Assembly: GCA_964445715.1 (NCBI GenBank)
Contig: CAYULJ010000003.1
Span: forward strand, 1-35,195
Length of the DNA: 35,195 nt
Direction: 5' to 3'
DNA from: an uncultured Planctomycetia bacterium
Lineage (GTDB): Bacteria; Omnitrophota; Gorgyraeia; Gorgyraeales; Gorgyraeaceae
In this document: positions 1,479 to 33,193 of the stretch, in pieces
Layout of the letters: every line of letters begins with the position of its first letter
Numbering within the stretch: position 1 is the stretch's first letter
Program-made: the position numbers and the translations under genes
The notes under the pieces: generated by a model
The model's database searches: none
What the model was told of the DNA's origin: nothing
The model's input: only the letters and a program-made list of their open reading frames with translations

Positions 1479-3197
1479 ATGAAAAAAGAATTAGATGCAC
1501 TACGACATAGTTGTTCTCACGTAATGGCAGATGCCGTGAAGAAGCTTTTCCCAAAGGTAAAGCTTGGCTTTGGCCCTGCTATTGAAGACGGGTTCTACTA
1601 TGATTTTGATTTACAGGATGGCTTTGCCTCAGAAGACCTTCACAAGATAGAAAAGGAGATGGCAAAGATCATAAAGCAAGATCTAGGGTTCAAGAGAGAA
1701 GATATTTCTAAAAAAGAAGCGCTTAAGTTATTCAAAAAATTAAAAGAGCTTTACAAGGTCGAACTTATAAACAACTTAGATTCGGATACAGTTTCTATTT
1801 ATAAGCACGGGAAATTTGTAGATCTTTGTAAAGGCCCGCACGTTGAGTCTACAGGCAGGATCAAGGCATTTAAGCTTCTGAGCATTGCAGGTGCGTATTG
1901 GCATGGCATTGAAACAAACCCAATGTTACAGCGAATATATGGTACTTGCTTTGAAAGCAAAAAGGCATTAGAAGATTTTCTGAGATTAAGGGAAGAAGCG
2001 AAGAAGAGAGATCACAGGAGACTCGGTAAGGATCTGGATTTATTCAGTATTCACGACGATGTCGGGCCTGGCCTTGTTTTTTATCACCCCAACGGCGCTC
2101 TCGTCAGGATGTTGGTGGAAGATTATATAAAAAAGGAACACTTGAAACGCGGCTATCAGATCGTGATGGGGCCTCATATTTTGAAATCCGATATATGGGT
2201 CACCTCCGGACATTACGATTACTACAAAGAAAATATGTACATATTTAAGGTAGAGAAGGATGAATACGTGATCAAGCCAATGAATTGTCCGGCGCATATG
2301 CTTATTTATAAATCAAAGACTAGAAGCTACAGAGATCTACCTATGCGATATTTTGAATTGGGCAATGTGCACCGAAGGGAAAAATCAGGTGTATTGCACG
2401 GACTTCTCAGGGTGCGGGGCTTTACCCAGGATGATGCGCATATATTTTGTCTGCCTGAACAGGTCGAGAAAGAGATTGTCGGCGTGATAGATTTTGTCAT
2501 CGATACGATGAAGGTGTTTGGTTTTATTGATTACAAGATCGATCTTTCCACAAGGCCGCCAAAATTTATTGGAAGCTTTAAGATCTGGGATGAAGCTACA
2601 AATGCGTTGAAAAAAGCGCTCGAGTCCAAAGGCATGACATATGATATCAATGAAGGCGAGGGCGCGTTTTACGGACCAAAAATAGATATCATGGTAAAGG
2701 ATGCATTGGGCAGGCCCTGGCAGTGTGCGACTGTGCAGTGCGACTTTGCACTACCTGAAAGATTTGATTTGGCATATATATCAAAGGACGGGAAAAAAGA
2801 ACGTCCAGTGATGTTGCACCGCGTAATACTGGGCAGCATGGAGAGATTCTTAGGCACCCTTATTGAGCATTATGCAGGCGCATTCCCTGTGTGGCTAAGT
2901 CCTCAGCAGGTCACTGTGATCCCCATTACTGAGAGGGCGCATGATTATGCGGATGAGACTTTGAGTAGATTGCAGGAAGAAGGAATAAGGGCTGAAGTCG
3001 ATAAAAGAAACGAAAAGCTACAGTATAAGATAAGAGAAAAGGAAACACAGAAACTGCCTTATATGTTGATCGTAGGCGACAAGGAAAAAGAAACGGGCAC
3101 GGTTTCGCTTCGAGCGCGAAAAGAAGGAAACCTCGGAAGCATAAAGCTGGAAGAATTTCTTTCTAGGATAAAGGACGAGATCGCAAATAAAAAATAA
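1479..3197 (+). CDS. thrS: threonine--tRNA ligase (no N-terminal TGS domain)
   Basis: ORF 1446-3197. Motifs RHSCSHV (editing domain), KRDHRRLGKDLDLF, PMNCPAH, FYGPKID and the anticodon-binding C-terminus. The first 11 codons (MLKCELRDRCY) are repeat-derived, so the start is moved to ATG 1479. The TAA stop lies in the terminus of the next repeat. Confidence 0.9.
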   Translation: MKKELDALRHSCSHVMADAVKKLFPKVKLGFGPAIEDGFYYDFDLQDGFASEDLHKIEKEMAKIIKQDLGFKREDISKKEALKLFKKLKELYKVELINNLDSDTVSIYKHGKFVDLCKGPHVESTGRIKAFKLLSIAGAYWHGIETNPMLQRIYGTCFESKKALEDFLRLREEAKKRDHRRLGKDLDLFSIHDDVGPGLVFYHPNGALVRMLVEDYIKKEHLKRGYQIVMGPHILKSDIWVTSGHYDYYKENMYIFKVEKDEYVIKPMNCPAHMLIYKSKTRSYRDLPMRYFELGNVHRREKSGVLHGLLRVRGFTQDDAHIFCLPEQVEKEIVGVIDFVIDTMKVFGFIDYKIDLSTRPPKFIGSFKIWDEATNALKKALESKGMTYDINEGEGAFYGPKIDIMVKDALGRPWQCATVQCDFALPERFDLAYISKDGKKERPVMLHRVILGSMERFLGTLIEHYAGAFPVWLSPQQVTVIPITERAHDYADETLSRLQEEGIRAEVDKRNEKLQYKIREKETQKLPYMLIVGDKEKETGTVSLRARKEGNLGSIKLEEFLSRIKDEIANKK

Positions 3198-3233
3198 GTT
3201 CACAATTCAACAATGTTAAAGTGTGAACTTAAA
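3193..3233. repeat. 41-bp palindromic element, family A (TTCACAC subfamily, degenerate)
   Basis: aataagttcacaattcaacaatgttaaagtgtgaacttaaa; its TAA at 3195-3197 is the thrS stop codon. Confidence 0.85.
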
Positions 3234-3249
3234 CGAGGAGGTGGTAGTT

Positions 3250-3780
3250 ATTCCACGGCCGTTACGAGTAAACCAAAAAATAAGGGTGAAAGAAGTAAGA
3301 TTGATAGGGCCTGATGGAGAACAGATGGGCACGGTTCTTACTCAGGATGCGTTACAAAAGGCGCAGGAGCTAGGGCTTGATCTGGTAGAGGTAGCTTTTC
3401 AGGCAAAACCGCCTGTCTGCCGTATAATGGATTATAGCAAGTATAAATACGACCAAGAGAAAAAAGAAAGAGAGGCCCGCAAGCATCAAAAGGTCGTGCA
3501 CCTGAAACAGATAAAGATAAAGCCAAATATAGAAGAGCATGACTATCAGGTTAAGCTTCACCATCTTAAGAGATTTCTGTCAAGAGGGGACAAAGCAAAA
3601 CTTATCATGATCTTTCGCGGGAGAGAGATGAGCCATATTGAGATAGGCAAGAAGGTCGTGGATAGGATGATCTCTGATCTTTCAGACGTGGGGGAGCTGG
3701 AAAAGAACCCTGTCAAAGAAGGAAGGAGCATAATAGTCAACTTTTTGCCAAAATCCAGCGTAGTGAAGGTTAAGAAATAG
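3250..3780 (+). CDS. infC: translation initiation factor IF-3, probable ATT start
   Basis: IF3 motifs KEVRLIGPDGEQMG and KPPVCRIMDYSKYKY. GGAGG at 3237-3241 lies 8 nt before ATT 3250. The track's GTG 3223 start is inside the repeat. AUU starts are a known conserved feature of infC. Confidence 0.85.
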   Translation: MPRPLRVNQKIRVKEVRLIGPDGEQMGTVLTQDALQKAQELGLDLVEVAFQAKPPVCRIMDYSKYKYDQEKKEREARKHQKVVHLKQIKIKPNIEEHDYQVKLHHLKRFLSRGDKAKLIMIFRGREMSHIEIGKKVVDRMISDLSDVGELEKNPVKEGRSIIVNFLPKSSVVKVKK

Positions 3781-3795
3781 ACAAGGAGCGTATAA

Positions 3796-3993
3796 ATGCC
3801 AAAGTTAAAAACAAACAAAAGCGCAAAGAAAAGACTTAAATTAACAAAAAAAGGTAAACTCAAGAGGTTTAAACCAGGGAGAAGGCATCTTTTGACCTCC
3901 AAGTCTTCCAACAGAAAGCGCGGCATGAGAAAAGGTGCGCTTGTCGAAGGAACGGTAGGAAAGATCACAAAGAAGCTTTTGCCTTATGGATAA
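3796..3993 (+). CDS. rpmI: 50S ribosomal protein L35
   Basis: 65 aa, basic, begins MPKLKTNKSAKKR; AAGGAG SD upstream; conserved infC-rpmI-rplT order. Confidence 0.9.
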   Translation: MPKLKTNKSAKKRLKLTKKGKLKRFKPGRRHLLTSKSSNRKRGMRKGALVEGTVGKITKKLLPYG

Positions 3994-4006
3994 GGAGAGG
4001 TAGATT

Positions 4007-4357
4007 ATGGCGCGCGTAAAATACGGACCAGCATCTAGGGCGAGAAGGAAAAAAGTCTCAAAGATGGCCAAAGGCCAGAGAGGCGGGAGAAGCAAGTGGC
4101 ATAGGGTTACAATGGAATCTGTGAACAAAGCGCTTGCTTATGGAACCAGAGATAGAAAAGCTAAGAAAAGGACATTCAGACAACTCTGGATCTTGAGGGT
4201 CTCCAATGCCTGCAAGGAACTCGGGATTTCCTATAGCAAGTTCATGAAGAAGTTATCGGATTCCAAGATACGCCTTAACAGAAAGATTCTCGCAGACATA
4301 GCAACGAACGACACAAAGGCTTTCAAAAAGCTCGTAGATACCGTCAATAAGAAATAA
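4007..4357 (+). CDS. rplT: 50S ribosomal protein L20
   Basis: 116 aa, begins MARVKYGPASRARRKKV; GGAGAGG SD; synteny. Confidence 0.9.
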   Translation: MARVKYGPASRARRKKVSKMAKGQRGGRSKWHRVTMESVNKALAYGTRDRKAKKRTFRQLWILRVSNACKELGISYSKFMKKLSDSKIRLNRKILADIATNDTKAFKKLVDTVNKK

Positions 4358-4360
4358 TCC

Positions 4361-4401
4361 CTTAAGTTTACACTTTAACATTGTTGAAGTGTAAACTTAA
4401 G
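4361..4401. repeat. 41-bp palindromic element, family A (consensus, T..G form on + strand)
   Basis: cttaagtttacactttaacattgttgaagtgtaaacttaag. Confidence 0.95.
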
Positions 4402-4421
4402 CTAGTAAATTGCATATTAAC

Positions 4422-5786
4422 ATGACTATACGTCGCTTAAAACCGCCACAGGTAGTAGTATTTAGCTTCCTTATAACGATTTTTGTCGGGGCGCTACTCT
4501 TGTCTTTGCCTCAGAGTTCCAGTAACGGTGCTTCTATTGGACTCGTGGACGCATTTTTTACTGCGACAAGCGCTACCTGCGTTACAGGGCTAATCGTCAA
4601 AGACACGGGCGCTGATTTTTCAAACTTTGGACAGTCGGTGATATTGTTTTTGGTGCAGATAGGCGGCTTGGGCATAATGACCATGTCTACTTTTTTCGCG
4701 ATACTCTTGGGCAGAAAATTAACGGTTCGCGAGAATGTTGTTATAAAGGGCGCTTTGGACCACCACTCCGTAGAAGGGTTAAAGACCCTTATAATGTATA
4801 TATTGGGCATGACTTTTGTTATTGAAGCCATAGGCGCGTTTTTTTTATATCGTAGTTTCGGAGACATATATCCGTCCGTATTCCACTCTATATCTAGTTT
4901 TTGCAATGCCGGGTTTTCTCTTAACTCGACAAGTTTTATCACTCATGCCCAAGACAGCTATGTCAATCTCGTAATGATTACACTGATTATACTGGGAGGG
5001 ATCGGCTTCGTTGTTCTTATAGATATCCCAAAGGTTTTCAGGTGGTGTTTTAGAAGAGTGTTCTTAAAAAGAAAAGAAGACATAATGCATTTGATCTCGA
5101 AGATAAGCCTTCAGTCAAAAGTCGCAGTTACTGTCAGCGCGATATTGCTGCTATTAGGAACAGTTGTTTTCTTTTTATTGGAGAACCATAAGGTTTTATA
5201 TGGGCTGGGGCTGGACAGGAAGATCTTGGCTTCTTTTTTCCAATCCGCGACTTCCAGAACAGCAGGATTTAATACAGTGCCGATAGGTAGGCTTGCAAGC
5301 CCGACATTGTTTTTTCTCATAATACTGATGTTTATAGGCGCTTCACCGGGGTCAACAGGAGGAGGCATAAAGACTTGCACATTGGGCGTTCTTTTGGCAG
5401 GGGCATGGAGCATGATAAAAAATAAGGGCAGTATACATATATTCAAAAAGACTATCCCCAGATCGATATTTAGAAAAGCTGTTATGATTGCAGGGCTTGC
5501 TGTGACATGGATAGTTCTTTTTACTATGCTTTTGAGTTTTGTCGAAGACCACAACGAGGCAATGCCCAATTATTTTTTGAGGATCTTATTCGAGGTGACT
5601 TCCGCGTTTGGCACTGTTGGGTTGTCGACAGGCATTACGCCTATTTTGAGTCCCATCGGCAAGATATTGATAATGCTTACTATGTTTGTCGGTAGGCTCG
5701 GTCCTTTGACGCTTGCGCTTGCAGTTGCAATGAAGGAACATAAGATTTTCTACAAGTACCCCGAGGAAAAGGTGATGGTGGGTTAA
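4422..5786 (+). CDS. trkH: TrkH/KtrB-family K+ uptake membrane subunit
   Basis: Polytopic membrane ORF with repeated pore-loop-like glycine motifs (GGLG, GGIG, TGGG, TVGLSTG). ATG 4422 is preferred over the track's TTG 4410. Confidence 0.85.
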   Translation: MTIRRLKPPQVVVFSFLITIFVGALLLSLPQSSSNGASIGLVDAFFTATSATCVTGLIVKDTGADFSNFGQSVILFLVQIGGLGIMTMSTFFAILLGRKLTVRENVVIKGALDHHSVEGLKTLIMYILGMTFVIEAIGAFFLYRSFGDIYPSVFHSISSFCNAGFSLNSTSFITHAQDSYVNLVMITLIILGGIGFVVLIDIPKVFRWCFRRVFLKRKEDIMHLISKISLQSKVAVTVSAILLLLGTVVFFLLENHKVLYGLGLDRKILASFFQSATSRTAGFNTVPIGRLASPTLFFLIILMFIGASPGSTGGGIKTCTLGVLLAGAWSMIKNKGSIHIFKKTIPRSIFRKAVMIAGLAVTWIVLFTMLLSFVEDHNEAMPNYFLRILFEVTSAFGTVGLSTGITPILSPIGKILIMLTMFVGRLGPLTLALAVAMKEHKIFYKYPEEKVMVG

Positions 5787-5805: not shown

Positions 5806-5858
5806 CTTAAGTTTACACTTTAACATTGTTAGAGTGTAAGTTAGAGTGTAAACTTAAG
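5806..5858. repeat. family A element with about 12-nt internal duplication of the right arm (53 bp)
   Basis: cttaagtttacactttaacattgtt-agagtgtaagtt-agagtgtaaacttaag. Confidence 0.9.
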
Positions 5859-6671: not shown

Positions 6672-6712
6672 CTTAAGTTTACACTTTAACATTGTTAAAG
6701 TGTAAACTTAAG
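6672..6712. repeat. 41-bp palindromic element, family A (fully symmetric T..A form)
   Basis: cttaagtttacactttaacattgttaaagtgtaaacttaag. Confidence 0.95.
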
Positions 6713-7744: not shown

Positions 7745-7766
7745 CAGCAGCTTTTAGCAACTGTAG

Positions 7767-7784
7767 GGCACACTTTAGTGTGCC
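7767..7784 (+). other. small hairpin GGCACAC-TTTA-GTGTGCC downstream of pheS
   Basis: 7-bp stem with a 4-nt loop and no following T-run. Its core CACACTTTA..GTGTG resembles the family A core. Confidence 0.5.
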
Positions 7785-10293: not shown

Positions 10294-10334
10294 CTTAAGT
10301 TTACACTTTAACAATGTTAAAGTGTAAACTTAAG
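10294..10334. repeat. 41-bp palindromic element, family A (symmetric T..A form, centre A)
   Basis: cttaagtttacactttaacaatgttaaagtgtaaacttaag. Confidence 0.95.
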
Positions 10335-10393: not shown

Positions 10394-10399
10394 ATAACT

Positions 10400-10590
10400 A
10401 TCCCTACAGTGTGCGCGTTGGAACAGGGTTTTTTGGACCAACATGATTGATATGGGAGCCTGACTTTAGATGTGGCTGTAAACCTTGTGGTAATAAAAGC
10501 AAGGGAACATTAAACATTTAAGAGGGCACCCACCTTAAAACCGGGTTCAATAAGACATCTTTCAACGCGGCATTAGTGGGGATTTTTTTT
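10400..10590 (+). ncRNA. candidate structured sRNA, 6S RNA-like (ssrS?)
   Basis: About 190 nt with no ORF. The 5' ATCCCTAC pairs with the 3' GTGGGGAT, and CGCGTTG (10414-20) pairs with CAACGCG (10563-69). An apical hairpin CCTTG/CAAGG lies at the midpoint. Ends in T8 (10583-10590). Confidence 0.4.
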
Positions 10591-10598
10591 GGAATGTC

Positions 10599-11906
10599 AT
10601 GCCTGATTTATTTGAATCAACGCGAAAAAAGAATAACAAGAACGTTCCTCTCGCTGTAAGGATGCGGCCCAGGACTTTGAGTGAATTTGTGGGGCAGTCG
10701 CATATACTTGGCGAAGGCAAGCTTTTGCGTCGCGCCATAGACGCGGACAGGATTGCTTCACTTATTTTATACGGCCCTCCTGGAACAGGCAAGACTGCTC
10801 TCGCGCATGTTATCGCAGGTATTACAAAGGCGCATTTCCACGAGATAAACGCAGTGATCTCTAATGTTCAGGAGCTAAGAGATGCTATAAGGGCCTCAAA
10901 GGAGCGCGAGAGGGCAAATGATAAAAAGACAATCCTTTTTATAGATGAGATCCATAGGTTCAACAAGGCGCAGCAGGATGTATTGATGCCTGATGTAGAA
11001 AAGGGCAATCCTGTCTTAATAGGCGCGACAACTCACAATCCGTTTTTTTCATTGGTGTCGCCTTTGATTTCCCGCTCAATAGTTTTTGAATTAAAAAAAC
11101 TCTCAAAAGAAGATGTGATAAAGATTTTGAAAAATGCGGCGAAAGATAAAGAGCGAGGGTTAGGAAAGATTTCTGTTAAAATCAGCGAAGATGTTTTGAG
11201 TTTTCTCGCAGAGGCTTCAGACGGTGATGCGAGAAAGGCGCTTAATGCATTAGAGGTAGGAGTTTTGACTACCAGGCCTGACAAAAAGGGCGCGATAGAT
11301 TTTAATATAAAAATAGCAGAAGAATCTATCCAGAAAAAGTCAGTCGTGTATGACAAGGACGAAGACGGGCATTACGATACGATATCCGCATTTATTAAAA
11401 GCATGCGCGGCTCTGATCCTGATGCGGCTCTCTATTGGCTTGCGAAGATGCTCTACGCAGGAGAGGATCCGAGGTTTATCGCGAGGCGCATCGTGATCTG
11501 CGCCGCAGAGGATGTCGGCAACGCAGACCCGCAGGCGATTGTTGTGGCAAATGCAGCATTTCAGGTGTCTGAGTTTGTCGGAATGCCAGAGTGCAGAATC
11601 CCTCTTGCGCAGGCAGTTTGCTACATCGCATGCGCGCCTAAGAGTAACGCCGTCTACCTTGGTATCGACAAGGCGATGAAAGATGTGGAGGAGTCAAGGA
11701 CATTAGAGGTACCGATTTACCTTAAAGACGCGAGTTATCGCGGCGCAAAAAAATTAGATCATGGTCAGGGCTACAAATATGCTCACCAATACGACGGTCA
11801 TTACGTAGAACAGGACTATATCCCTGAAAAAAGAATATATTACGAGCCTACCGATATCGGTTACGAGAAGAAGATAAAAGAGTATCTGGACAGACTCCGA
11901 AAATAA
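10599..11906 (+). CDS. rarA: replication-associated recombination protein A (RarA/MgsA AAA+ ATPase)
   Basis: Walker A GPPGTGKT, Walker B/sensor FIDEIHRFNK, MgsA C-terminal domain. The TAA stop (11904-11906) lies in the repeat terminus. Confidence 0.9.
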   Translation: MPDLFESTRKKNNKNVPLAVRMRPRTLSEFVGQSHILGEGKLLRRAIDADRIASLILYGPPGTGKTALAHVIAGITKAHFHEINAVISNVQELRDAIRASKERERANDKKTILFIDEIHRFNKAQQDVLMPDVEKGNPVLIGATTHNPFFSLVSPLISRSIVFELKKLSKEDVIKILKNAAKDKERGLGKISVKISEDVLSFLAEASDGDARKALNALEVGVLTTRPDKKGAIDFNIKIAEESIQKKSVVYDKDEDGHYDTISAFIKSMRGSDPDAALYWLAKMLYAGEDPRFIARRIVICAAEDVGNADPQAIVVANAAFQVSEFVGMPECRIPLAQAVCYIACAPKSNAVYLGIDKAMKDVEESRTLEVPIYLKDASYRGAKKLDHGQGYKYAHQYDGHYVEQDYIPEKRIYYEPTDIGYEKKIKEYLDRLRK

Positions 11907-11942
11907 GTTCACACTTTAACAACGTTAAAGTGTGGACTTAAG
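11902..11942. repeat. 41-bp palindromic element, family A (TTCACAC subfamily, degenerate)
   Basis: aataagttcacactttaacaacgttaaagtgtggacttaag. Confidence 0.85.
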
Positions 11943-12955: not shown

Positions 12956-12996
12956 CTTAAGTTTACACTTCAACAATGTTAAAGTGTAAACTTAAG
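12956..12996. repeat. 41-bp palindromic element, family A (consensus, C..A form on + strand)
   Basis: cttaagtttacacttcaacaatgttaaagtgtaaacttaag, the exact reverse complement of the 4361 copy. Confidence 0.95.
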
Positions 12997-13696: not shown

Positions 13697-13712
13697 AAAG
13701 TGTGAACTTAAG
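13697..13712. repeat. family A half-element (right arm only)
   Basis: aaagtgtgaacttaag with no left arm nearby; abuts the transposase remnant. Confidence 0.8.
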
Positions 13713-13750
13713 CTTGCATGTCGCGATTCTATATGGTATGCTTTGTAAAA

Positions 13751-14347
13751 ATGAAAACTGCAATAAAATTAGTCCAAATTTTTATCACGATTCAAATTGT
13801 ATCCGCAAACCCTGCCTATGGTGTTCAAATAACTGACAGAAATGAATACCTCTATGATGTACGGGATGATGACGGAAATATTTACAGAAATCGCCTCTCG
13901 ATCCATAAAAAATTAGATACCTACGACATAGACATGTCAGGTTTTGGAGAAGTCCAGTGGAATTTCAAGTTAAATGACTGGGAAAAATTAATGTTAGGCG
14001 TGGAGGCCGAGAAAAAACTATTCAGATACTTCTATATAGGTCAATCTTTTCAATTCATATCAGGTCAGATGCTAGACTATATGGTCTTTGACGCGGATTC
14101 TAGATCCATAGACACTACTACAAAAATAGTTTTCAGCTATCCCCTGCTCGAATACCTAGACTTTAAGCTTTTTGAGGAATATTCCATAAATCTCGAGGAA
14201 GGAAGAGATGAATGCAATGAAGTGGGCGCTGAGATTATCTACAACCTAAAGGATTCTTGCTCTTTAGGGGTGGGTTGGCGCCATACTGACAGGATTCACA
14301 ATTTTGACACTGACTACGTAACCTCGTCTATTAAATTACGCTTTTAA
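13751..14347 (+). CDS. hypothetical protein, putative outer-membrane beta-barrel
   Basis: Signal-like N-terminus MKTAIKLVQIFITIQIVSANPAYG, alternating aromatic/hydrophilic pattern, C-terminal ...SSIKLRF (terminal Phe). ATG 13751 is preferred to 13718. Confidence 0.5.
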   Translation: MKTAIKLVQIFITIQIVSANPAYGVQITDRNEYLYDVRDDDGNIYRNRLSIHKKLDTYDIDMSGFGEVQWNFKLNDWEKLMLGVEAEKKLFRYFYIGQSFQFISGQMLDYMVFDADSRSIDTTTKIVFSYPLLEYLDFKLFEEYSINLEEGRDECNEVGAEIIYNLKDSCSLGVGWRHTDRIHNFDTDYVTSSIKLRF

Positions 14348-15457
14348 TCCTGAGAGATACGCCTCGCAACTTCTCTTTGTCTCTGAAATATTATCTCCGC
14401 CAAATTTTTCCAACGCCGCATTTGCTATGACAAAAGCACACACTGCCTCAGCCACGACTCCTGCGCTCGGCACAGCGCACACATCAGACCTTTCTGTAAC
14501 TGCCTTTTTGGCCTCTTTGGTCGCGATGTCTATTGAATTCAACCCCTTCATCAATGTGCTGATCGGTTTCATGTAGCCGCGGATAATTATATTCTCGCCG
14601 TTCGAGACTCCGCCTTCAATGCCGCCTGCGTTATTGGTCTTTCTGTATATGCCTTTGGGCTTGGAATAAAATATCTCGTCGTGCACTTTTGATCCTAATT
14701 TTTTAACTGCCTCGATACCTTCTCCGATCTCAACTGCCTTCACTGCCGGTATAGACATAATGGCAGAAGCAATCATTGCGTCAAGTCTCCGGTCACTCTC
14801 TACATAACTCCCAAGACCTGGCGGCACACCTTCTAGAATCACCTCGAATATGCCCCCTAAAGTATCCTTTTTTTCTTTTGCACTATCTATCTCCTCTATC
14901 ATCAATTTCTCAGAAGCCTTATCAGCGCAATTCAATTTAGACTTAGTCGTATTTTTAATTATCTCGTCAAAACTTAAGCTAGAGGTATGGGCCTTAACGC
15001 CGCCGATCATGACAACGTGGCTTAACATGCGCATCTTTAATTCTTTTAGAAAAATCTTACAGACCGCACCCAGCGCAACCCTCATGGCTGTCTCTCTTGC
15101 AGAGGCCCTCTCAAGGACAGAACGCGCTTCCTTGAAGCCGTATTTCAAAATCCCTGCAAGGTCAGCATGTCCTGGTCTGGGATTTTTGACATCAGGCAAT
15201 TTATCTATGGAGAAATCCTTGTTCTCTATGAGAATGGAAATGGGGCTCCCTATGGTCACGCCACCCCTCAGACCTGAAACTATCTCGGCGCGGTCCTCTT
15301 CTATATTCATCCTGTCGCCTCTGCCATAGCCTTGTTGGCGGCGCTTAAGTTCTTCGTCTATAAAGTCTGCGTCGACTTTTAATGCAGCTGGCATGCCTTC
15401 TAGGATACCAATTAATGCTTCACCATGAGATTCACCTGCAGTCAAATATCGTAACAT
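14336..15457 (-). CDS. aroC: chorismate synthase
   Basis: 373 aa. MLRYLTAGESHGEAL N-terminus, GRGDRMNIEED and RSDVCAVPSAGVV motifs. Confidence 0.92.
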   Translation of the reverse strand: MLRYLTAGESHGEALIGILEGMPAALKVDADFIDEELKRRQQGYGRGDRMNIEEDRAEIVSGLRGGVTIGSPISILIENKDFSIDKLPDVKNPRPGHADLAGILKYGFKEARSVLERASARETAMRVALGAVCKIFLKELKMRMLSHVVMIGGVKAHTSSLSFDEIIKNTTKSKLNCADKASEKLMIEEIDSAKEKKDTLGGIFEVILEGVPPGLGSYVESDRRLDAMIASAIMSIPAVKAVEIGEGIEAVKKLGSKVHDEIFYSKPKGIYRKTNNAGGIEGGVSNGENIIIRGYMKPISTLMKGLNSIDIATKEAKKAVTERSDVCAVPSAGVVAEAVCAFVIANAALEKFGGDNISETKRSCEAYLSGLKA

Positions 15458-16241: not shown

Positions 16242-16282
16242 CTTAAGTTTACACTTTAACATTGTTGAAGTGTAAACTTAAG
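16242..16282. repeat. 41-bp palindromic element, family A (consensus, T..G form on + strand)
   Basis: cttaagtttacactttaacattgttgaagtgtaaacttaag; overlaps the last 8 codons and the stop of aroE. Confidence 0.95.
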
Positions 16283-17207: not shown

Positions 17208-17247
17208 CTTAACTTTACACTTTAACATTGTTAAAGTGTAAAGTTAG
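17208..17247. repeat. family A element, AACTTT/AAAGTT subfamily
   Basis: cttaactttacactttaacattgttaaagtgtaaagttag; contains the leuA stop (17244-17246). Confidence 0.9.
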
Positions 17248-18791
17248 AGGTCGAGTTCTTTCTGTTGAGGCTTTGTTTTTCGCGATCGTGCGAAAAAGAG
17301 CCTGTTTGTTGCGTTCAGGTATGCCTTTGCGCTGGCCTCGATTATATCCGTAGAGGCTCCTCTTCCTGAAACTTCTTCGCCCTTGCCAGGTTTTATCCTG
17401 ACAGAAACCTCGCCCAGGGCGTCCTTGCCTCTTGTTATAGACTTTAGAGAATAATCCAGAAGCGCACAACTGAGACCTGTTATCTTATCAATGGCTTTGT
17501 AGCACGCATCCACAGGCCCGTCGCCAGTAGAAGATTTTTTAAGCATCTTCGCGCCTTTTTTTAGCACCACTGTGGCACGCGGCACGATCTTACTGCCGCT
17601 TACTATGCTTAGATCTTCCAGTCTATATGTCTCCGGTATAGAGATAATTTCGTCCTCGACAATAGTCAACAGATCCTCGTCAAATATCTCCTTCTTTTTA
17701 TCTGAGAGATTCTTAAATCGCTTGAATGCCTTCAAAAGATCCTTTTTGTTAAGTTCGAACCCTAGCTTCTTCAATCTCTCGGAAAATGCGTGCTTGCCTG
17801 AATGTTTCCCGAGTACAAGCCGCGTCTCGCCGAAGCCCACATCCTCTGGTTTCATGATCTCATAGGTTGTGCGCTTCTTCAGGATGCCGTCCTGGTGCAC
17901 ACCAGCCTCGTGGCTGAATGCATTGCGGCCTACTATTGCCTTGTTCGGCTGCACTACAATGCCTGTGAGTTTACTCACCAAGCGGCTCGCCTTATAAAGC
18001 TCCTTTGTATTTATCGACGTGGAAGATGCAAAAATATCCTTTCGCGTGTCCAACGCCATTACAATTTCTTCCAAGGACGCATTGCCTGCCCTCTCGCCAA
18101 TGCCGTTGACAGTGCATTCTATTTGCTCAGCGCCGTTCTCGATAGCTGCGAGAGAATTGCTGACGCCGAGCCCGAGGTCATTGTGGCAATGCACGCTCAG
18201 TATGGCCTTGTTCGAATTAGGGACTTTGTTTTTTATTGTGCCTATGAGCGAACCGAATTCGATCGGGATTGCGTAGCCGACTGTGTCAGGGATATTCACT
18301 GTCTTCGCGCCTGCGGATATGACTGCTTCGACCACGCGACACAGAAAATCCTTTTCAGAGCGCGAAGCATCTTCCGGCGAAAATTCGACATCATCGCAAA
18401 ACTTACGCGCGTATTCCACAGCCCACGCTGCCTGTCTCAATATTTCGCTCTCTGCCTTTTGTAACTTATACTGCATGTGGATCTTGGATGTTGCCAAAAA
18501 TACATGGATGCGCGGCTTTTTCGCTTTTTTGACAGCGCGGGCACACGTCTCTATATCCTGCTTTGTGGCCCTTGCAAGGCCGCAGATACTCGGCCCTTTG
18601 ATTTCAGAGGCGACTTTGCTGACTGCATCAAAATCCCCTTTTGAGGCAATGGGAAAACCCGCCTCAATCACGTCAACGCCGAGCCTTGCCAATTGCCTTG
18701 CAATGTCGATCTTTGCCTTTATATCGAGGCTTGCTCCCGGCGACTGCTCGCCGTCTCTCAGGGTTGTGTCGAATATTATTATTCTCTTCAT
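17244..18791 (-). CDS. leuA: 2-isopropylmalate synthase
   Basis: [29 protein letters not shown] and a LeuA dimer/regulatory C-terminal domain. The track start at 18821 ([10 protein letters not shown]) is repeat-derived, so ATG 18791 is used. Confidence 0.88.
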
Positions 18792-18800: not shown

Positions 18801-18841
18801 CTTAAGTTTACACTTTAACATTGTTGAAGTGTAAACTTAAG
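18801..18841. repeat. 41-bp palindromic element, family A (consensus, T..G form)
   Basis: cttaagtttacactttaacattgttgaagtgtaaacttaag. Confidence 0.95.
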
Positions 18842-19881: not shown

Positions 19882-19922
19882 CTTAAGTTTACACTTTAAC
19901 ATTGTTGAAGTGTAAACTTAAG
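19882..19922. repeat. 41-bp palindromic element, family A (consensus, T..G form)
   Basis: cttaagtttacactttaacattgttgaagtgtaaacttaag. Confidence 0.95.
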
Positions 19923-20435: not shown

Positions 20436-20529
20436 CTTAAGTTCAAAAATAGGGACAGACACCTATTTTTTATGACCTATTTTTAGAAACTAATAAAAAT
20501 AGGTGTCTGTCCCTATTTTTGAACTTAAG
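20436..20529. repeat. 94-bp composite palindrome, family B (family A termini plus a different core)
   Basis: cttaagttcaaaaatagggacagacacctattttt...aaaaataggtgtctgtccctatttttgaacttaag; 35-nt arms perfectly complementary. Contains the ilvB stop (20525-20527). Confidence 0.95.
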
Positions 20530-22212: not shown

Positions 22213-22253
22213 TTTAAGTTTACACTTCAACAATGTTAAAGTGTAAACTTAAG
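22213..22253. repeat. 41-bp palindromic element, family A (C..A form; first base T)
   Basis: tttaagtttacacttcaacaatgttaaagtgtaaacttaag. Confidence 0.95.
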
Positions 22254-23990: not shown

Positions 23991-24100
23991 CTTAAGTTTA
24001 CCAAAAATACAAAAATAGGGACAGACACCTATTTTTTCTTATTTTCTAAAATAGATTACGAAAAAAATAGGTGTCTGTCCCTATTTTTGGTAAACTTAAG
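23991..24100. repeat. 110-bp composite palindrome, family B (11-nt family A termini)
   Basis: cttaagtttaccaaaaatacaaaaatagggacagacacctattttt...aaaaataggtgtctgtccctatttttggtaaacttaag. The left arm carries an extra 8-nt (aaaaatac) tandem duplication. Confidence 0.95.
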
Positions 24101-24102: not shown

Positions 24103-24579
24103 CTAATCCCGCGATATCTTTATGACTTTATATTTCAATGTACCTGCTGGCACACTTATATTGACGATCTCACCTTTCTTACGGCCCAAAAGCGCCTTGC
24201 CCACAGGCGATGAAATCGAAATCCTGCCTTGGCTAAAATCTGCCTCGTCTTCAGTCACTAATTTATAATCTATCTTCTCCTTGGAATTCAGGTCTTCCAA
24301 CTTCAGATTAGCTCCTACATAAGCCTTGTCCGTAGAAATACTCTCGTTTTCAATGATCTTGGCACATCCGAGCTTATTTACAAGCTCGGCGATCCTCTTC
24401 TCGTTTATTGCCTGTGCTTGCTTTGCAGAATCGTATTCCGCGTTCTCGCTCAAGTCCCCCAAAAGCCTTGCTTTCTCGAGCGCGTCTGCTATCTCCCTGC
24501 GCTTTTCTCCTTTAAGAAATTCCAAGTCTTTCCTGAGCTTCTCAAAACCTTTTTTAGTCAAAAACACGCCTTCTGACAT
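24103..24579 (-). CDS. greA: transcription elongation factor GreA
   Basis: 158 aa with LTKKGFEKLRKDLEFL and GDLSENAEYDSAKQAQ. The start overlaps the alr stop (TAATG). Confidence 0.92.
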   Translation of the reverse strand: MSEGVFLTKKGFEKLRKDLEFLKGEKRREIADALEKARLLGDLSENAEYDSAKQAQAINEKRIAELVNKLGCAKIIENESISTDKAYVGANLKLEDLNSKEKIDYKLVTEDEADFSQGRISISSPVGKALLGRKKGEIVNISVPAGTLKYKVIKISRD

Positions 24580-25739: not shown

Positions 25740-25780
25740 CTTAAGTTTACACTTCAACAATGTTAAAGTGTAAACTTAAG
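25740..25780. repeat. 41-bp palindromic element, family A (consensus, C..A form)
   Basis: cttaagtttacacttcaacaatgttaaagtgtaaacttaag; contains the tsaB stop (25776-25778). Confidence 0.95.
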
Positions 25781-26480
25781 GCTTTGAACTTGACTTTACC
25801 TGGCAATATTTCGAATATATATACAAAGGCTTAAGCTTGCCGAGGTCTTGTTTTCTGCGCCTTTTTATATTTTTAAGGCTCAATTTTATAAGACTGCTAG
25901 CCTTTGGATACCAATATTTCTCATCTAAAAAAATTGCGTTTCGGCAAACCCTATGTATTTTTTCTTTGTAAAGATTTATACCGTCACCTAAAAATATTGC
26001 AGGGCCTTTGATCTTTTTCATGAGATCATCTATAGTCAATAAAAGATAAGCCGAAACCTTGGAAATATCATTATTTTTTTTCTTATATATCGCAGAATAC
26101 ACCTGGCTTCTCTTTGCATCGATCACCGGCACTATAGCTATCTCTTCGCCATCCGCATTCATTGCCAATGCATCAATGCTTGCCACGCCAATACATGGCT
26201 TCCTTGTAGCAATACCAAACCCTTTTATGGAACTCACGCCTATACGTAGACCTGTAAACGAGCCCGGTCCGAGACCGACGACAAACGCGTCAATATCACC
26301 AATGTTCGAATTGCATTTCTCCAAGAGCTCCTTGACTTTCGGCACCAAGAGAGCCGAGTGCTGCCTGTCAAGCAGATGCGACTCCTCTGAAATAATAAAA
26401 TTATCCTCTCCCAGTGCTATATTTAAAAATTTAGAACTCGTATCAATCGCCAGAATTTTCATTTTTTGCGCTTTTGTCAT
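25776..26480 (-). CDS. tsaB: tRNA t6A biosynthesis protein TsaB
   Basis: KILAIDTSS N-terminus and GPGSFTGLRIG motif. The start is either ATG 26480 (inside the GC hairpin) or ATG 26462 (MKILAID). Confidence 0.85.
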   Translation of the reverse strand: MTKAQKMKILAIDTSSKFLNIALGEDNFIISEESHLLDRQHSALLVPKVKELLEKCNSNIGDIDAFVVGLGPGSFTGLRIGVSSIKGFGIATRKPCIGVASIDALAMNADGEEIAIVPVIDAKRSQVYSAIYKKKNNDISKVSAYLLLTIDDLMKKIKGPAIFLGDGINLYKEKIHRVCRNAIFLDEKYWYPKASSLIKLSLKNIKRRRKQDLGKLKPLYIYSKYCQVKSSSKP

Positions 26481-26499
26481 TCCCGCGAAAGCGGGAATC
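26476..26499. repeat. GC-rich hairpin element, family C (GTCATTCCCGC-GAAA-GCGGGAATC)
   Basis: 8-bp stem ATTCCCGC/GCGGGAAT with a GAAA loop. Directly abuts the family A copy at 26500. A second copy is at 34777. Confidence 0.85.
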
Positions 26500-26540
26500 C
26501 TTAAGTTTACACTTCAACAATGTTGAAGTGTAAACTTAAG
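26500..26540. repeat. 41-bp palindromic element, family A (C..G fully paired form)
   Basis: cttaagtttacacttcaacaatgttgaagtgtaaacttaag; contains the tsaE stop (26536-26538). Confidence 0.95.
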
Positions 26541-26943: not shown

Positions 26944-26951
26944 GATCCCGC

Positions 26952-26990
26952 CTAACTTTACACTTTAACGTTGTTGAAATGTAAAGTTAG
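26952..26990. repeat. family A element, AACTTT/AAAGTT subfamily (39 bp, diverged)
   Basis: ctaactttacactttaacgttgttgaaatgtaaagttag; contains the thiL stop (26987-26989). Confidence 0.85.
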
Positions 26991-27889
26991 AAGTGTGAAT
27001 AGCCTGAGGCTTTTATCTTTTGTTCACTTCTGTTCTTCTTTATTATACAAAATCCTTTGCGCCTGCCGCAAATCCTCCCGATCCTGGAAAGACGCGTTCT
27101 AAACGGCCATGTCTTTTCTAATTTAAGAGCTGCTTTTTGCGACAATGTAAAGACCAGCTCAAAATCCTCGCCTTCTCTTACAGCTGCGCTGAAACTCCTC
27201 ACATTCTTGGACAATGGCACACTTTTCTCGCAAACCACTGCGCCTACTTCACTCGCCTCCAGTATATGGCCCAGGTCAGCTAATAGGCCGTCAGAGACGT
27301 CTATCATGGAATTTATTTTGAAATTTTTTACCAAAAAACGAGATTCCTTAAGGCGCGGGGTGAAATTCAAATGCTTGCCTTCTGAGGCACCGCCAATGTT
27401 CCCTGTAACAAATATCGCATCGCCTACTTTGGCGTTACTACGCAAGACCAATTGTTTTTTTTCAACGCTGCCCAAAACTGCGATGTTCACGATTATCTTT
27501 TTTGAAGCAACCGTATCCCCGCCTACTAAATCAACGCCAAACCTCTTAGCCACATCTCTCATCCCTTTATACAGCACCTCTACATATCTAACATTGAGAG
27601 ATGGTGGCACGCCCAAAGAAACCAATGCAAACTCAGGCACTCCTCCCATAGCCGCAATATCGCTTATGTTAGAAGAAATGCATTTTTTCCCGACCAGGCT
27701 CGCCTCTGCTCGTCTATAAAAATGCGCGCCTTCCAAAAGCATGTCAGAGGTAAACAGAAGATATTTATCTTTCGTATATCTCAAAACAGCTGCATCATCT
27801 CCTATGCCATTTGCTACTTTCCTGGAGAGCTTTACGCGCGCCGAAATCCTCTTTATTAAATTAAATTCTCCTAAATCTCTTAATATCAT
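26987..27889 (-). CDS. thiL: thiamine-monophosphate kinase
   Basis: GEFNLIKRI, GIGDDAAV, FTSDMLLEGAHF and GGDT motifs of the PurM-like ThiL fold. Confidence 0.88.
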   Translation of the reverse strand: MILRDLGEFNLIKRISARVKLSRKVANGIGDDAAVLRYTKDKYLLFTSDMLLEGAHFYRRAEASLVGKKCISSNISDIAAMGGVPEFALVSLGVPPSLNVRYVEVLYKGMRDVAKRFGVDLVGGDTVASKKIIVNIAVLGSVEKKQLVLRSNAKVGDAIFVTGNIGGASEGKHLNFTPRLKESRFLVKNFKINSMIDVSDGLLADLGHILEASEVGAVVCEKSVPLSKNVRSFSAAVREGEDFELVFTLSQKAALKLEKTWPFRTRLSRIGRICGRRKGFCIIKKNRSEQKIKASGYSHF

Positions 27890-28970: not shown

Positions 28971-28978
28971 TGGTAGTG

Positions 28979-29019
28979 CTTAAGTTGACACTTCAACAAT
29001 GTTAAAGTGTCAACTTAAG
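28979..29019. repeat. 41-bp palindromic element, family A (TTGACAC/GTGTCAA subfamily)
   Basis: cttaagttgacacttcaacaatgttaaagtgtcaacttaag. Confidence 0.95.
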
Positions 29020-29033
29020 CCAAGTACTCTACT

Positions 29034-30137: not shown

Positions 30138-31171
30138 CCCGTTACCATTAGTTCTTTTATAAAAAACACGAAGCCAATGATGATCGAATTATGCACGACG
30201 TGCACTGTCATTGAAGCAACAAGAGATCCTGTCCTTTCATAAAGGTAGGCCAAAAGCAAGCCCAATACCATAATCGGCAAAAAGCCCACGATATTAGTAT
30301 GCAGAAGGCTGAAAATTGACGCGCTTATAAATGCCGCCCCTATTATGCCAATTCGCTTCTTGATCGCATTATACATAAACCCTCGAAAGAATATTTCTTC
30401 TATGATAGGGCCTAAAATGGAAACGAATATCGTAAAGAATAAAAGAAATCCACATCTCTCCTCTTCCATAAATACTTCAAATACAGGCTGAGGTTCGGGT
30501 TTATAACCCAAGAGATTCGATATCCATACAGAAAAAAGCAATACTGCAAACAAAAGCGGCAGAATAAAAACATAACCTGCTATGCCTGATGAAATATTCT
30601 TAAACAAAAAAAACGATCTCAAGCCTAAGGAAGTTATTGTGTCTTTACGTCTAATCACTACAAAATATAGCACCACTACGACCACAGCAATATCTATAAA
30701 AAAGGTATTGACCATCATGCTTAAATTGATCCCGATATTTAATTGAAATAGCTCATAAATTACACTTTGTGCCAAACCTAAGATGTAACTCATAAAAACA
30801 ATGACAATGCTCGCCCTTAAAAGATCGGAGACGCCCCAAGAAACAAGGCCTCTTTTCCCTTCTGAAGACAAACTAATAACAAAAGGCCTTATCCCAAAAA
30901 TAAAAGCTAAATTCATTACAACGGAAAACATGAATACCAGAAATCCCAAGACTATCGCATATTTAAAAAACCTTGCGCTTAGCTTATCAGAAGCCAGAAA
31001 ATCTTTGACTCTCTCTTCAGTAATGCCAATGTCCTCGAAGGTCATTTCTGAAAAGGATTTTTCGGTCTTGACTTCCTCTTTCTTTGGCTGACCAGCGCTC
31101 ATAAAATTCACGGCCAACACAAAAAGAATCATGAATATGTATATTTTTTCTCGTCTTATAAAATCCAACAT
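30134..31171 (-). CDS. CPBP-family intramembrane glutamic endopeptidase
   Basis: Polytopic, with EEIFFRGF and SLLH...HVVHN motifs (CAAX/Abi fold). The track start at 31204 (MLKCELKWDIS) is repeat-derived, so ATG 31171 is used. ATGA overlap with the upstream gene. Confidence 0.8.
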   Translation of the reverse strand: MLDFIRREKIYIFMILFVLAVNFMSAGQPKKEEVKTEKSFSEMTFEDIGITEERVKDFLASDKLSARFFKYAIVLGFLVFMFSVVMNLAFIFGIRPFVISLSSEGKRGLVSWGVSDLLRASIVIVFMSYILGLAQSVIYELFQLNIGINLSMMVNTFFIDIAVVVVVLYFVVIRRKDTITSLGLRSFFLFKNISSGIAGYVFILPLLFAVLLFSVWISNLLGYKPEPQPVFEVFMEEERCGFLLFFTIFVSILGPIIEEIFFRGFMYNAIKKRIGIIGAAFISASIFSLLHTNIVGFLPIMVLGLLLAYLYERTGSLVASMTVHVVHNSIIIGFVFFIKELMVTG

Positions 31172-31183
31172 AGAAATATCCCA

Positions 31184-31224
31184 CTTAAGTTCACACTTTA
31201 ACATTGTCGAAATGTGATCTTAAG
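31184..31224. repeat. 41-bp family A element (TTCACAC subfamily, right arm decayed)
   Basis: cttaagttcacactttaacattgtcgaaatgtgatcttaag; contains the tatD stop (31220-31222). Confidence 0.85.
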
Positions 31225-31987
31225 GTAATGAAAAGAGTTTTTTTGCGTTGGTGGTCGTGATCCTGGCCACTTCTTCGAGACTCCTGCCTTTTATCTTCGC
31301 GATCTCTTCTGCCAGGTACTTCACATAACTCGGCTCGTTTCGTTTGCCCCTGAATATCTGCGGCGCCAAAAACGGTGCGTCAGTCTCAAGAAGAAGTCTT
31401 TCTATGGGCACCTTATTCGCGACCTCCCGCAGCTTGTCAGCATTTTTAAAAGTAAGATTGCAGGTAAACGATACATGAAGTCCCATATCCAAGCAATCCG
31501 TCAGAAATTTCTCGTCTCCAGAGAAACAATGCATGACACCCTTTAGCTTGTTTCCCATAATCTCCTTTAATATAGCCAATATATCCTCATGCGCATCGCG
31601 ATTATGTATGATTATCGGCAAATCCCTTTCCCTTGCCTCGCTCAATAAAATCCTAACCAGCTTTTTCTGATTTTCTTTCGAGGAAATATTTTTAAAATAA
31701 TCCAGGCCGATCTCCCCGATCGCAACCACTTTATCTCTGCCGAGAAGCATCCTAAACTCTTCTAAATGCTTCTCTGGCACGCTGTCAGCTTCGTGAGGGT
31801 GGATCCCGGCTGCCGCATAGATAAAATCATTCTTCTCAGCGATCTCTATCGAGGCCTTTGTCCCCCGAAGGCTTGAGCCGACATTGACGATCAGACCCAC
31901 GCCCTCTTTCCTAGAGCGCTTTATGACCTCGTCCCTGTCAGATTCAAAGTCTTTGAAATCTAGATGACAGTGAGTATCTGTCAGCAT
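31220..31987 (-). CDS. tatD: TatD-family metal-dependent hydrolase (DNase)
   Basis: MLTDTHCHLDF N-terminus and GEIGLDY, HCFSG, ETDAPFL motifs. The ATG at 31987 overlaps the nifS stop (ATGCTGA). Confidence 0.88.
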   Translation of the reverse strand: MLTDTHCHLDFKDFESDRDEVIKRSRKEGVGLIVNVGSSLRGTKASIEIAEKNDFIYAAAGIHPHEADSVPEKHLEEFRMLLGRDKVVAIGEIGLDYFKNISSKENQKKLVRILLSEARERDLPIIIHNRDAHEDILAILKEIMGNKLKGVMHCFSGDEKFLTDCLDMGLHVSFTCNLTFKNADKLREVANKVPIERLLLETDAPFLAPQIFRGKRNEPSYVKYLAEEIAKIKGRSLEEVARITTTNAKKLFSLP

Positions 31988-33138
31988 AACGGTGACATCT
32001 CTCTGAGTCTTTTTACTATCGGCGGGATTTCGACCAGGCAATACTCAACGTCCTTTTCAGCATTCTCATAGCCGAAAGAAAATCTAATAGAGCCTTGTAA
32101 AATATCAGGCGGAACGCCCATTGCAGTCAATACGTGAGAAGGCTCAAGCGAACCAGAAGTACAAGCAGAACCAGTGGAAGCAGAAATGCCTTTCATATCA
32201 AAATTCAATACCAAAGATTCGCCCTCGATATATCTGAAGCTTATATTGAGCGTATTGGAAAGGCGATACTCGGGGTGCCCGTTTAGATATATCTCGTTGA
32301 GCTCCTTCTTTAAGCCTCCAAGAAATTTATCCGCGAGCTTCTTGAGATGCTTGTTTGTCTTCTTCATGTCCTTCACGGCAATTTCTACTGCTTTTGCAAA
32401 ACCCACAATGCCAGGCACGTTTAAAGTCCCTGCCCTCAATCTCCTCTCATGATGTCCGCCAGTCTGATAGGGCAAGACCTTGACGCCCTTCCTTATATAT
32501 AGCGCGCCTGCACCTTTAGGCCCGTTCAACTTATGCGCTGAAAAAGAACAGAGATCAACGCCAAGACTTTCGACATCTATAGGCTCTTTACCAAGGGCCT
32601 GGACCGCGTCTGTGTGAAAACATATACCGTTCTTTTTTGCTATTTTCCCGATCTCTTTTATTGGCTGTATAGTGCCTGTCTCGTTGTTGGCAAACATGAT
32701 CGAAATCAAAACAGTGTCTTTTCTTATAGAGTCTTTCAATTTATTCAGGTCGACAACACCGTGTTTATCAACAGGGAGCCGAGTGACTTCAAAACCCAAC
32801 TCTTCTTCGGCAAATTTGCATGATTCCAAAACTGCGAGATGTTCTATCTCGCTAGTTATTATGTGCCTACCTTTGGCCAGGTTCGCAACAGCCACCCCTT
32901 TTATAGCAAAATTATCTGATTCAGTGCCGCCTGAGGTAAAGATAATATCCACTGGCTCTGTGCCAATTGCGTGCGCGACAACTTCTCTCGACGCTTCGAC
33001 TGCCTTGTGGGCTATCTGGCCCTTGGAATGCACACTCGAGGCATTCCCGCACTCGTCGGAAAAATACGGCATCATCGCCTCCAGCACCTCTTTGCGCACT
33101 GGCGTTGTCGCATTGTGATCCAAATAAATCTGTCTCAT
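31981..33138 (-). CDS. nifS: cysteine desulfurase (NifS/IscS class I)
   Basis: IYLDHNATTP, SAHKLNGPKGAGALY (PLP Lys) and SSGSACTSGSLEPSHVL active-site Cys loop. Confidence 0.9.
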   Translation of the reverse strand: MRQIYLDHNATTPVRKEVLEAMMPYFSDECGNASSVHSKGQIAHKAVEASREVVAHAIGTEPVDIIFTSGGTESDNFAIKGVAVANLAKGRHIITSEIEHLAVLESCKFAEEELGFEVTRLPVDKHGVVDLNKLKDSIRKDTVLISIMFANNETGTIQPIKEIGKIAKKNGICFHTDAVQALGKEPIDVESLGVDLCSFSAHKLNGPKGAGALYIRKGVKVLPYQTGGHHERRLRAGTLNVPGIVGFAKAVEIAVKDMKKTNKHLKKLADKFLGGLKKELNEIYLNGHPEYRLSNTLNISFRYIEGESLVLNFDMKGISASTGSACTSGSLEPSHVLTAMGVPPDILQGSIRFSFGYENAEKDVEYCLVEIPPIVKRLREMSPLC

Positions 33139-33152
33139 ATCATCACTCCCAC

Positions 33153-33193
33153 CTTAAGTTTACACTTTAACATTGTTGAAGTGTAAACTTAAG
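33153..33193. repeat. 41-bp palindromic element, family A (consensus, T..G form)
   Basis: cttaagtttacactttaacattgttgaagtgtaaacttaag; contains the metG stop (33189-33191). Confidence 0.95.

Follow-up and report, generated by a model that had tools for sequence, protein, structure and literature searches.

The systems closest to the repeat reported here are the GTAG-tagged repetitive extragenic palindromic (REP) sequences, short palindromes of high copy number found for the most part immediately behind genes. They are already known to supply TAG stop codons, and they form REPtrons, in which copies of the palindrome stand on both sides of a Y1 (HUH) transposase gene (Di Nocera, De Gregorio and Rocco 2013, BMC Genomics 14:522, PMC3733652). 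Gene ends within a repeat are also known from Coxiella burnetii, in which roughly a dozen functional genes run 1-50 bp into a QMITE1 or QMITE2 element at their 3' ends with little change in protein size, and in which an indel sets the end of enhC before or inside a QMITE (PMC5896051). Analysis of a 35,195-nt contig of an uncultured Omnitrophota bacterium (CAYULJ010000003.1; the whole stretch is called the window below) revealed a 41-nt hairpin element that supplies the stop codon of flanking genes from a TAA at the foot of its own stem.

The 41-mer differs from the GTAG REPs in that it has no GTAG or CGTC tag, that its ends read CTTAAG, CTAAC or AACAAC, that a tag TAA-S-TTyACA stands at both feet of a near-perfect 19-bp stem, that its copies are single hairpins and not doublets, and that the scale is far larger, at 9-20% of all genes. 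The REPs of Escherichia coli resemble it as stable extragenic hairpins at or near termination codons inside operons, and those within about 15 nt of a stop reportedly lower translation of the upstream gene; there the hairpin follows the stop, whereas here the stop lies inside the stem foot. The Coxiella QMITEs are larger, contain direct repeats, concern few genes and have neither a conserved terminal stop nor a linked Y1 gene. The MIRUs of Mycobacterium are said to be intercistronic operon repeats whose ends overlap the flanking stop and start codons; they are tandem direct repeats carrying small open reading frames (ORFs), whereas the 41-mer is a single palindromic hairpin. The kind of event is known; new are a non-GTAG, TAA-footed symmetric hairpin family with a Y1 gene encoding a helix-turn-helix (HTH) in Omnitrophota, its scale, with as many as a fifth of genes concerned, and the direct comparison of species that shows how the fusions originate. 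To our knowledge, no such REP-like superfamily with a candidate cognate Y1 has been described in Omnitrophota before.

The element is a 41-nt palindrome (CTTAAGTTTACACTTTAAC-ATT-GTTGAAGTGTAAACTTAAG) with a 19-bp stem and a 3-nt loop, and its RNA folding energy is -22.1 kcal/mol (z = -9). The window contains 20 copies together with two longer palindromes of a second family (family B) with identical caps, and CTTAAG occurs in it 49 times against 13.6 expected. The inverted doublet arrangement of REPINs and BIMEs was not the case for the 41-mer: window copies occur singly, with a start-to-start spacing of at least 451 nt, and adjacent pairs are rare. The genome of the window (G000; 1.59 Mb in 153 contigs, the window being contig C3) contains 365-379 copies, and a same-genus sister species (G001), compared over its complete assembly, contains 551; both assemblies are about 90% complete. 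A third species (M3) came from the JACKQG01 metagenome, with 59 contigs at 80-90% identity to G000 and to G001. Genes were called with a crude longest-ORF caller with a codon score (1,482 genes in G000 and 1,390 in G001), and gene identities in the window are from NCBIfam profile matches. The G001 consensus is CCTAACTTTACACTTTAAC-GTT-GTTGAAATGTAAAGTTAGG, with the ends CTAAC...GTTAG. A search for a longer stem showed that positions -1 and +42 are unpaired (21-30% Watson-Crick) and merely G/C-rich, and a scan of the window with Rfam 15 at the gathering score returned only 6S RNA and three tRNAs, with no match to the 41-mer. Nor do the copies look like intrinsic terminators: the stem is A+T-rich, the downstream bases are A/G-rich (T 9-29%) with no U-tract, and many copies are intra-operon.

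The original prediction was that nine flanking genes take their stop from an element terminus and that aroE ends in an element interior. The ORF list and our own gene calls placed the stop at the terminal TAA at all nine places and the aroE stop inside the stem, and the near cases proved right as well, with spacers of 3 nt (rplT), 1 nt (PP-loop ATPase), 5 nt (pheT) and 2 nt (greA). NCBIfam confirmed thrS, the RarA-like ATPase, leuA, ilvB, tsaB, tsaE, thiL, tatD, metG and aroE; because the matches extend to the C-terminal end of the profiles, the proteins are untruncated. Below, a gene is called fused when its stop is the terminal TAA of the hairpin (offset +2). A genome-wide comparison with the one-in-three frame expectation, as the prediction had proposed, revealed a strong excess: 138 of the 176 in-element stops of G000 are at +2 (17 at +15, 16 at +31 and 5 elsewhere; binomial p = 1.9e-34), as are 276 of the 319 of G001 (13 at +15 and 21 at +31; p = 2.4e-86). 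The terminal TAA ends 9.3% (138/1,482) of the called genes in G000 and 19.9% (276/1,390) in G001, and in another 31 G000 genes the closing CT-TAA-G leads into a variant, composite or family B element. Unfused G000 copies exhibited no frame bias (58:48:53). The overlap with stops is non-random, with the terminal TAA at its center, and the observation is confirmed genome-wide.

We lean, with moderate confidence, towards the explanation that tight packing pushed gene ends into a protected hairpin, which would be a REP-like non-autonomous repeat without TTAA targeting. The hairpin would be kept and homogenised in each genome, most likely by a Y1 (HUH, RAYT-like) HTH transposase or by gene conversion, and each copy is wedged in between the upstream ORF and the ribosome-binding site of the gene that follows. 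Short deletions, which TAx...TAA microhomology may favor, would remove the spacer that separates a gene's own stop from the hairpin, or the own stop would be lost by mutation or frameshift, so that the ORF would end at the outermost in-frame hairpin stop. The fused state would act as a sink, further deletion being expected to harm the protein or the hairpin, and the last sense codon would tend to become NCT or NCC as the copies are homogenised. The two species, both uncultured marine Omnitrophota, show how far a selfish or semi-domesticated hairpin repeat can enter gene structure. The copies in the window are as follows, listed without strand, with their state in the other species where it bears on the comparisons below.

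3193-3233, 41-nt hairpin: thrS stop 3195-3197 is the terminal TAA, the outer CT being AA; also fused in G001, with compensatory stem changes.
11902-11942, hairpin: stop of the rarA-like gene, 11904-11906, is the terminal TAA; fused in M3, G001 having instead its own TGA stop and a spacer.
17208-17248, hairpin of the CTTAAC subfamily: leuA stop 17244-17246 (minus strand) is the terminal TAA.
20436-20529, family B palindrome of 94 nt with CTTAAGTTCA caps and a AAAAATAGGGACAGACACC core: ilvB stop 20525-20527 is the terminal TAA.
25740-25780, hairpin: tsaB stop 25776-25778 is the terminal TAA; last codon CCT.
26500-26540, hairpin: tsaE stop 26536-26538 is the terminal TAA; last codon GCT.
26951-26991, hairpin of the G001-like CCTAAC type: thiL stop 26987-26989 is the terminal TAA.
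31184-31224, hairpin: tatD stop 31220-31222 is the terminal TAA; in G001 and M3 tatD reads into the element (+24).
33153-33193, hairpin: metG stop 33189-33191 is the terminal TAA; last codon TCT.
16242-16282, hairpin: aroE stop 16256-16258 is inside the stem at offset +24.
4361-4401, hairpin: 3 nt past the rplT stop; fused in G001 with an unchanged protein end, 8 nt shorter.
10294-10334, hairpin: 5 nt past the pheT TAG stop; fused in G001, 10 nt shorter, with the same far junction.
12956-12996, hairpin: 1 nt past the PP-loop ATPase stop; fused in G001, 6 nt shorter, with opposite loop orientation.
23991-24100, family B palindrome of 110 nt: 2 nt from the greA stop (24103-24105).
6672-6712, hairpin: absent in G001, which has a TAAG footprint; present in M3, so the absence is a secondary loss.
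1426-1466, hairpin: behind a tRNA cluster with no gene stop involved; absent in G001.
5806-5858, hairpin of 53 nt with a 12-nt internal duplication.
18801-18841, hairpin: 16 nt past a stop (offset -19).
19882-19922, hairpin: offset -28.
22213-22253, hairpin: offset -13.
28979-29019, hairpin with a compensated TTGACA/TGTCAA stem variant: offset -17.
34729-34769, hairpin: offset -39, with a dRS3-like hairpin between copy and stop.

Replacement of the outermost C/T of the element by coding sequence, which had been suggested from thrS and rarA, held for a minority only, since 72% of fused ends still have C1 and 80% still have T2. Because C1 and T2 are mostly retained, the repeat's own NCT or NCC encodes the last residue, and Ala, Ser, Pro or Thr stands at the C-terminus of 71% of fused genes in G000 and 46% in G001, compared with 19% and 16% for the remaining genes. 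In fused genes, the last codon tracks the species consensus, NCT in G000 and NCC in G001. Gene callers and C-terminal comparisons in these genomes are affected by such hairpin-supplied stops.

Analysis of pairing within the element bears on the first explanation that had been offered for the terminal TAA, namely insertion into TA, TAA or TTAA with target duplication. On that account the 41-mer would be a miniature inverted-repeat transposable element (MITE) moved by a DDE transposase, and the terminal TAA would be partly target-derived. The G000 caps, CTTAAG...CTTAAG, do hold direct TTAA repeats, and the terminal inverted repeats and TA-containing end of G000 recall MITEs that use TA or TTAA (the Correia elements of Neisseria, IS630/Tc1-mariner derivatives, piggyBac). 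In 98-100% of the copies of either species, however, positions 3-5 are base-paired with 37-39, and compensatory changes occur further up the stem, at position 6 (GC in 335 copies, CG in 35) and position 9 (TA in 299, CG in 70); TAA and TTA are paired stem bases and not a duplicated target. The G001 ends CTAAC...GTTAG are inverted, not direct, and positions 2 and 40 vary nearly independently. A sister element in genus g7 of the same family, likewise 41 nt long (AACAACTT(G/T)ACA...TGT(C/A)AAGTTGTT), has the ends AACAAC...GTTGTT without TA, with CAA...TTG at the place of TAA/TTA. That TAA might be a recent innovation of the present genus was considered and rejected, as TAA-capped relatives extend to numerous other genera and to a second family; since the TAA caps are so widespread, the CAA of g7 is probably the derived state.

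Comparison of 60 filled/empty pairs between G000 and G001 revealed no excess of any target word at the empty-allele junctions over the gene-end background (TA 33 versus 29%, TAA/TTA 30 versus 28%, TTAA 12 versus 11%), with the caveat that some of the "empty" alleles are secondary losses. Junction microhomology, measured as slide, was 0-1 nt in 46 of the 60 pairs, and the filled-minus-empty length had a median of 47.5 nt (interquartile range 40-57) without a sharp mode. Among about 25 trace-free empty alleles tallied by eye, the gene's own stop was TAA in 11, TAG in 8 and TGA in 6. A few empty alleles do carry TAAG at the junction, as the DDE account would have it; two such G001 sites (window 6672 and C97:5754) are both filled in M3, and are therefore footprints of loss rather than empty targets. 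Neither G000 nor G001, each about 90% complete, contains an IS630-type (PF13358, DDE_3) or IS4/IS5-type (PF01609, DDE_Tnp_1) transposase gene, and a long autonomous element bounded by the caps and enclosing a transposase was sought and not found. With no target duplication, no target word and no matching enzyme, we consider transposition by a DDE enzyme extremely unlikely, and neither the duplicated ends nor the TTAA target preference of the original prediction is supported; its mechanism fails the refuting condition that the prediction itself had set for empty sites.

The shared sites of the two species gave a direct view of how gene ends reach the hairpin. At 205 one-to-one shared sites, the two species agree in 72 fused and 41 unfused cases; G001 alone is fused at 35 (+11), and G000 alone at 12 (+4). 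In these discordant pairs, exemplified in the window by rplT, pheT and the PP-loop ATPase, both proteins terminate after the same residue and the far junctions match from the first base onwards; the differences are confined to the own stop (TAA, TAG or TGA), the 0-36 nt of spacer and positions 1-2 of the element. Long spacers checked by eye never recur beyond the element in the other species, and thus do not reflect insertions at shifted points. Two further routes were seen, one in which the own TGA was mutated with read-through to an in-frame TAA (KPK* to KPRRA*) and one in which a +1 frameshift led onto the hairpin TAA; one-base indels also toggle stops between the +15 and +2 frames. Since about 48% of the element-free orthologous gaps have changed length, indel turnover is fast enough for such merging. 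Selection for stops at the hairpin, offered in the original prediction as the alternative to targeting, comes nearer to this evidence; what is directly seen is merging after insertion, by short deletions and loss of stops.

The same sites bear on a different proposal, in which the Y1 enzyme would insert the single-stranded hairpin directly 3' of a TAA without duplication, so that copies would be fused from the outset. IS200/IS605 elements target a fixed tetranucleotide and go in on its 3' side, and the IS200/IS605-derived PATE resemble the present case in their Y1 transposase and lack of target-site duplication. A cognate Y1 gene is present, the TAA of the stem foot is invariant in many genera, no duplication was seen, the +2 frame dominates and fusions keep the original C-terminus exactly, all of which such targeting would account for. 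Yet the state has changed in place at 46+16 shared sites with the same far junction, the empty alleles are not enriched for TAA and have own stops of all three kinds, and the breadth of the filled-minus-empty lengths does not fit copies born fused. The invariant TAA, which would be the counterpart of the fixed 5' word of IS200/IS605, is inseparable from the stem, and g7 copies likewise abut stops though they are without TAA. The 41-mer is moreover one symmetric hairpin, unlike the PATE with their asymmetric ends and distinct subterminal hairpins, and it exhibits no replication strand bias. Elements occupy divergent gaps as often as other gaps (31% of divergent gaps in G000 and 59% in G001), and the element is therefore not tied to gene 3' ends; orientation counts (166:137 in G000 and 191:156 in G001) revealed no bias relative to gene or replication direction. 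We regard insertion directly behind TAA as a possible explanation, one that we doubt. Equally doubtful is its extended form, in which a Y1+HTH enzyme both inserts the stop-footed hairpin 3' of TAA, without duplication, and keeps replacing it at the same spot, as a self-spreading cassette of stop, hairpin and Shine-Dalgarno (SD) motif; if it were true, stop codons would be natural landing pads where intergenic DNA is nearly absent, and up to a fifth of proteins would be terminated by the cassette.

Several observations weigh against the merging of gene ends into pre-existing hairpins that we favor. The three species are roughly equidistant and cannot polarise most of the near/fused differences, so the direction of most changes is what we infer; at five sites, the gene is fused in G001 and M3 and unfused in G000 only. 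The fused share is alike in lineage-specific and shared copies (0.61 versus 0.63 in G001), an equality that insertion behind TAA would predict and that slow erosion would not, unless the lineage-specific copies are of old date and have disappeared from the other species. A dependence of fusion on copy age was rejected on the same figures. The fusions are also very exact, with protein length unchanged in 56 of 75, which calls for microhomology or strong selection. The excess of TAA among replaced stops was not significant (26:9:4 versus 21:8:9.5, p = 0.11), and the crude gene calling is a further weakness.

Comparison of individual copies revealed marked homogenisation within genomes. As many as 190 of 205 G000 copies are nearer to their own genome's consensus than to the G001 ortholog, and loop orientation agrees at just 122 of 222 shared sites (55%) with identical junctions. 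Re-insertion at shifted points, suggested by the discordant loop orientation, was rejected, as far junctions are identical despite the differing orientation. The closeness to the own consensus, the discordant orientation at fixed junctions and the last codon that follows the species consensus show that copies are overwritten in place, probably through either gene conversion or enzyme-mediated replacement. Orientation flips at fixed junctions make this a clean system for studying repeat maintenance.

The candidate enzyme came from the Y1 (PF01797) proteins, which both G000 and G001 encode. A 263-aa Y1 gene in G000 (C5:25560-26351) has an element copy on each side and its own stop inside one of them ('...LKFTL*'). 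The protein contains an HUH-type (HIHLL) motif and a YIHHNP-type motif, and its best and only strong NCBIfam match is NF047646 (REP-associated tyrosine transposase, RAYT), at 64 bits, below the 80-bit RAYT equivalog cut-off; its C-terminal HTH is a further difference from the GTAG REPtrons. Among 61 relatives screened for Y1 orthologs and capped hairpins, 16 contain close orthologs of this gene, and in every locus inspected (G050, G051, G010 and G025, as well as G000) the local form of the palindrome flanks the ortholog. In G050, a g7 genome, four copies lie within 1.7 kb around the Y1 gene out of 26 genome-wide (Poisson p = 1.5e-8), and the stop of the Y1 gene is again within a copy. At least 22 of the 61 relatives (G010 with 128 copies) have hairpins whose outer arms read TAA-S-TTyACA...TGTrAA-S-TTA and whose inner stems are lineage-specific, and the presence of at least nine capped hairpins in a genome goes together with that of the Y1 ortholog (Fisher odds ratio 13, p = 2.8e-4). 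The 41-mer thus belongs to a REP-like superfamily in a REPtron-like arrangement, without the GTAG tag of classical REPs.

A bona fide RAYT of G001 (NF047646, 116 bits; C1:179330-179960, loci L035/L107) was rejected as the partner of the 41-mer, because it is flanked on both sides by a different repeat, the GTAG REP TTATCCACA-GTAGGGGAGCCTTAAGGCTCCCCTAC, as a classical REPtron. This REP occurs in 10-16 copies per genome and coexists in G001, with its own RAYT, alongside the 41-mer; tblastn found no close ortholog of the RAYT in G000. Two copies of the G001 type were also seen on one contig of G023 (C130:873-2677; genus g12, 73% complete), which may be mis-binning rather than true presence.

Both genomes are extremely compact: the median element-free tandem gap is 12 nt in G000 and just 4 nt in G001, and the fused share of copies is 36% in G000 and 50% in the more compact G001. 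The median distance from an element to the next start codon is 13-14 nt, and the AG/G at the far end belongs to an SD-like AGGA or GGAG in 17-20% of copies. This placement, and the orientation counts on the G000 mRNA strand, where U.G is mildly commoner than C.A (72 versus 41), would also suit a functional hairpin with UAA at its stem foot and the next SD across the stem, which would couple termination, mRNA processing or stability and re-initiation, fusion to the stop being favored by selection for that coupling. In keeping with such a role, the stem is maintained by compensatory changes, among them subfamilies with matched one-base deletions in both arms, and 222 sites are common to both species though spacer DNA is barely tolerated. 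However, the two orientations are nearly equal, copies also stand in divergent (promoter) gaps, the dominant sequence of G001 has two non-Watson-Crick positions, no U-tract follows the hairpin, and copies are freely gained and lost, or replaced in situ by family B and GTAG REPs. We judge selection for such a cassette improbable, and prefer the merging of gene ends into the hairpin by tight packing.

The replacing families are distinct palindromes. Family B consists of palindromes with a core AAAAATAGGGACAGACACCTATTTTT within CTTAAGTT caps; its half-cores number 53 in G000, none being found in G001, and at several sites family B stands in G000 exactly where G001 carries the 41-mer. A degenerate GTAG-type REP (CTGTAGGGCACACTTTAGTGTGCC) was seen at window 7762-7784, in a gap that holds a 41-mer in G001; palindrome families thus swap at one spot behind a stop. 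Composite copies at G000 C10:4977-5032 and C29:3885-3960 and at G001 C4:91215-91270 have a small hairpin (ACCACTTCGTGG...) nested in the arms of the 41-mer, which suggests that elements insert into each other. A third hairpin family, TGTCATTCCCGCGAAAGCGGGAATC, lies at window 26475-26499 and 34776-34800, with 16 copies in G000 and 60 in G001, near gene ends; it fits the ATTCCC-N8-GGGAAT form of the Neisseria dRS3 repeats.

Logan short-read contigs from four seawater metagenomes (X1, X4, X7 and X8) terminate at most hairpin copies of the window and span just a few variant ones, such as 5806-5858 and 11902-11942; owing to these breaks, no allele that skips a copy was seen among them. Such breakage of short-read contigs at the hairpin repeat is probably why G000 is split into 153 contigs. 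At about 13700-14400 of the window, gene orientation and GC skew both flip, with a peak in cumulative skew; plus-strand genes and positive skew lie before this region, and minus-strand genes and negative skew after it. The switch fits a replication terminus or merely convergent transcription units. A 6S RNA gene (Rfam RF00013, 91 bits) lies at 10398-10586 on the plus strand, between pheT and the rarA-like gene and about 60 nt past the hairpin copy at 10294-10334, in a stretch that is highly conserved in G001.

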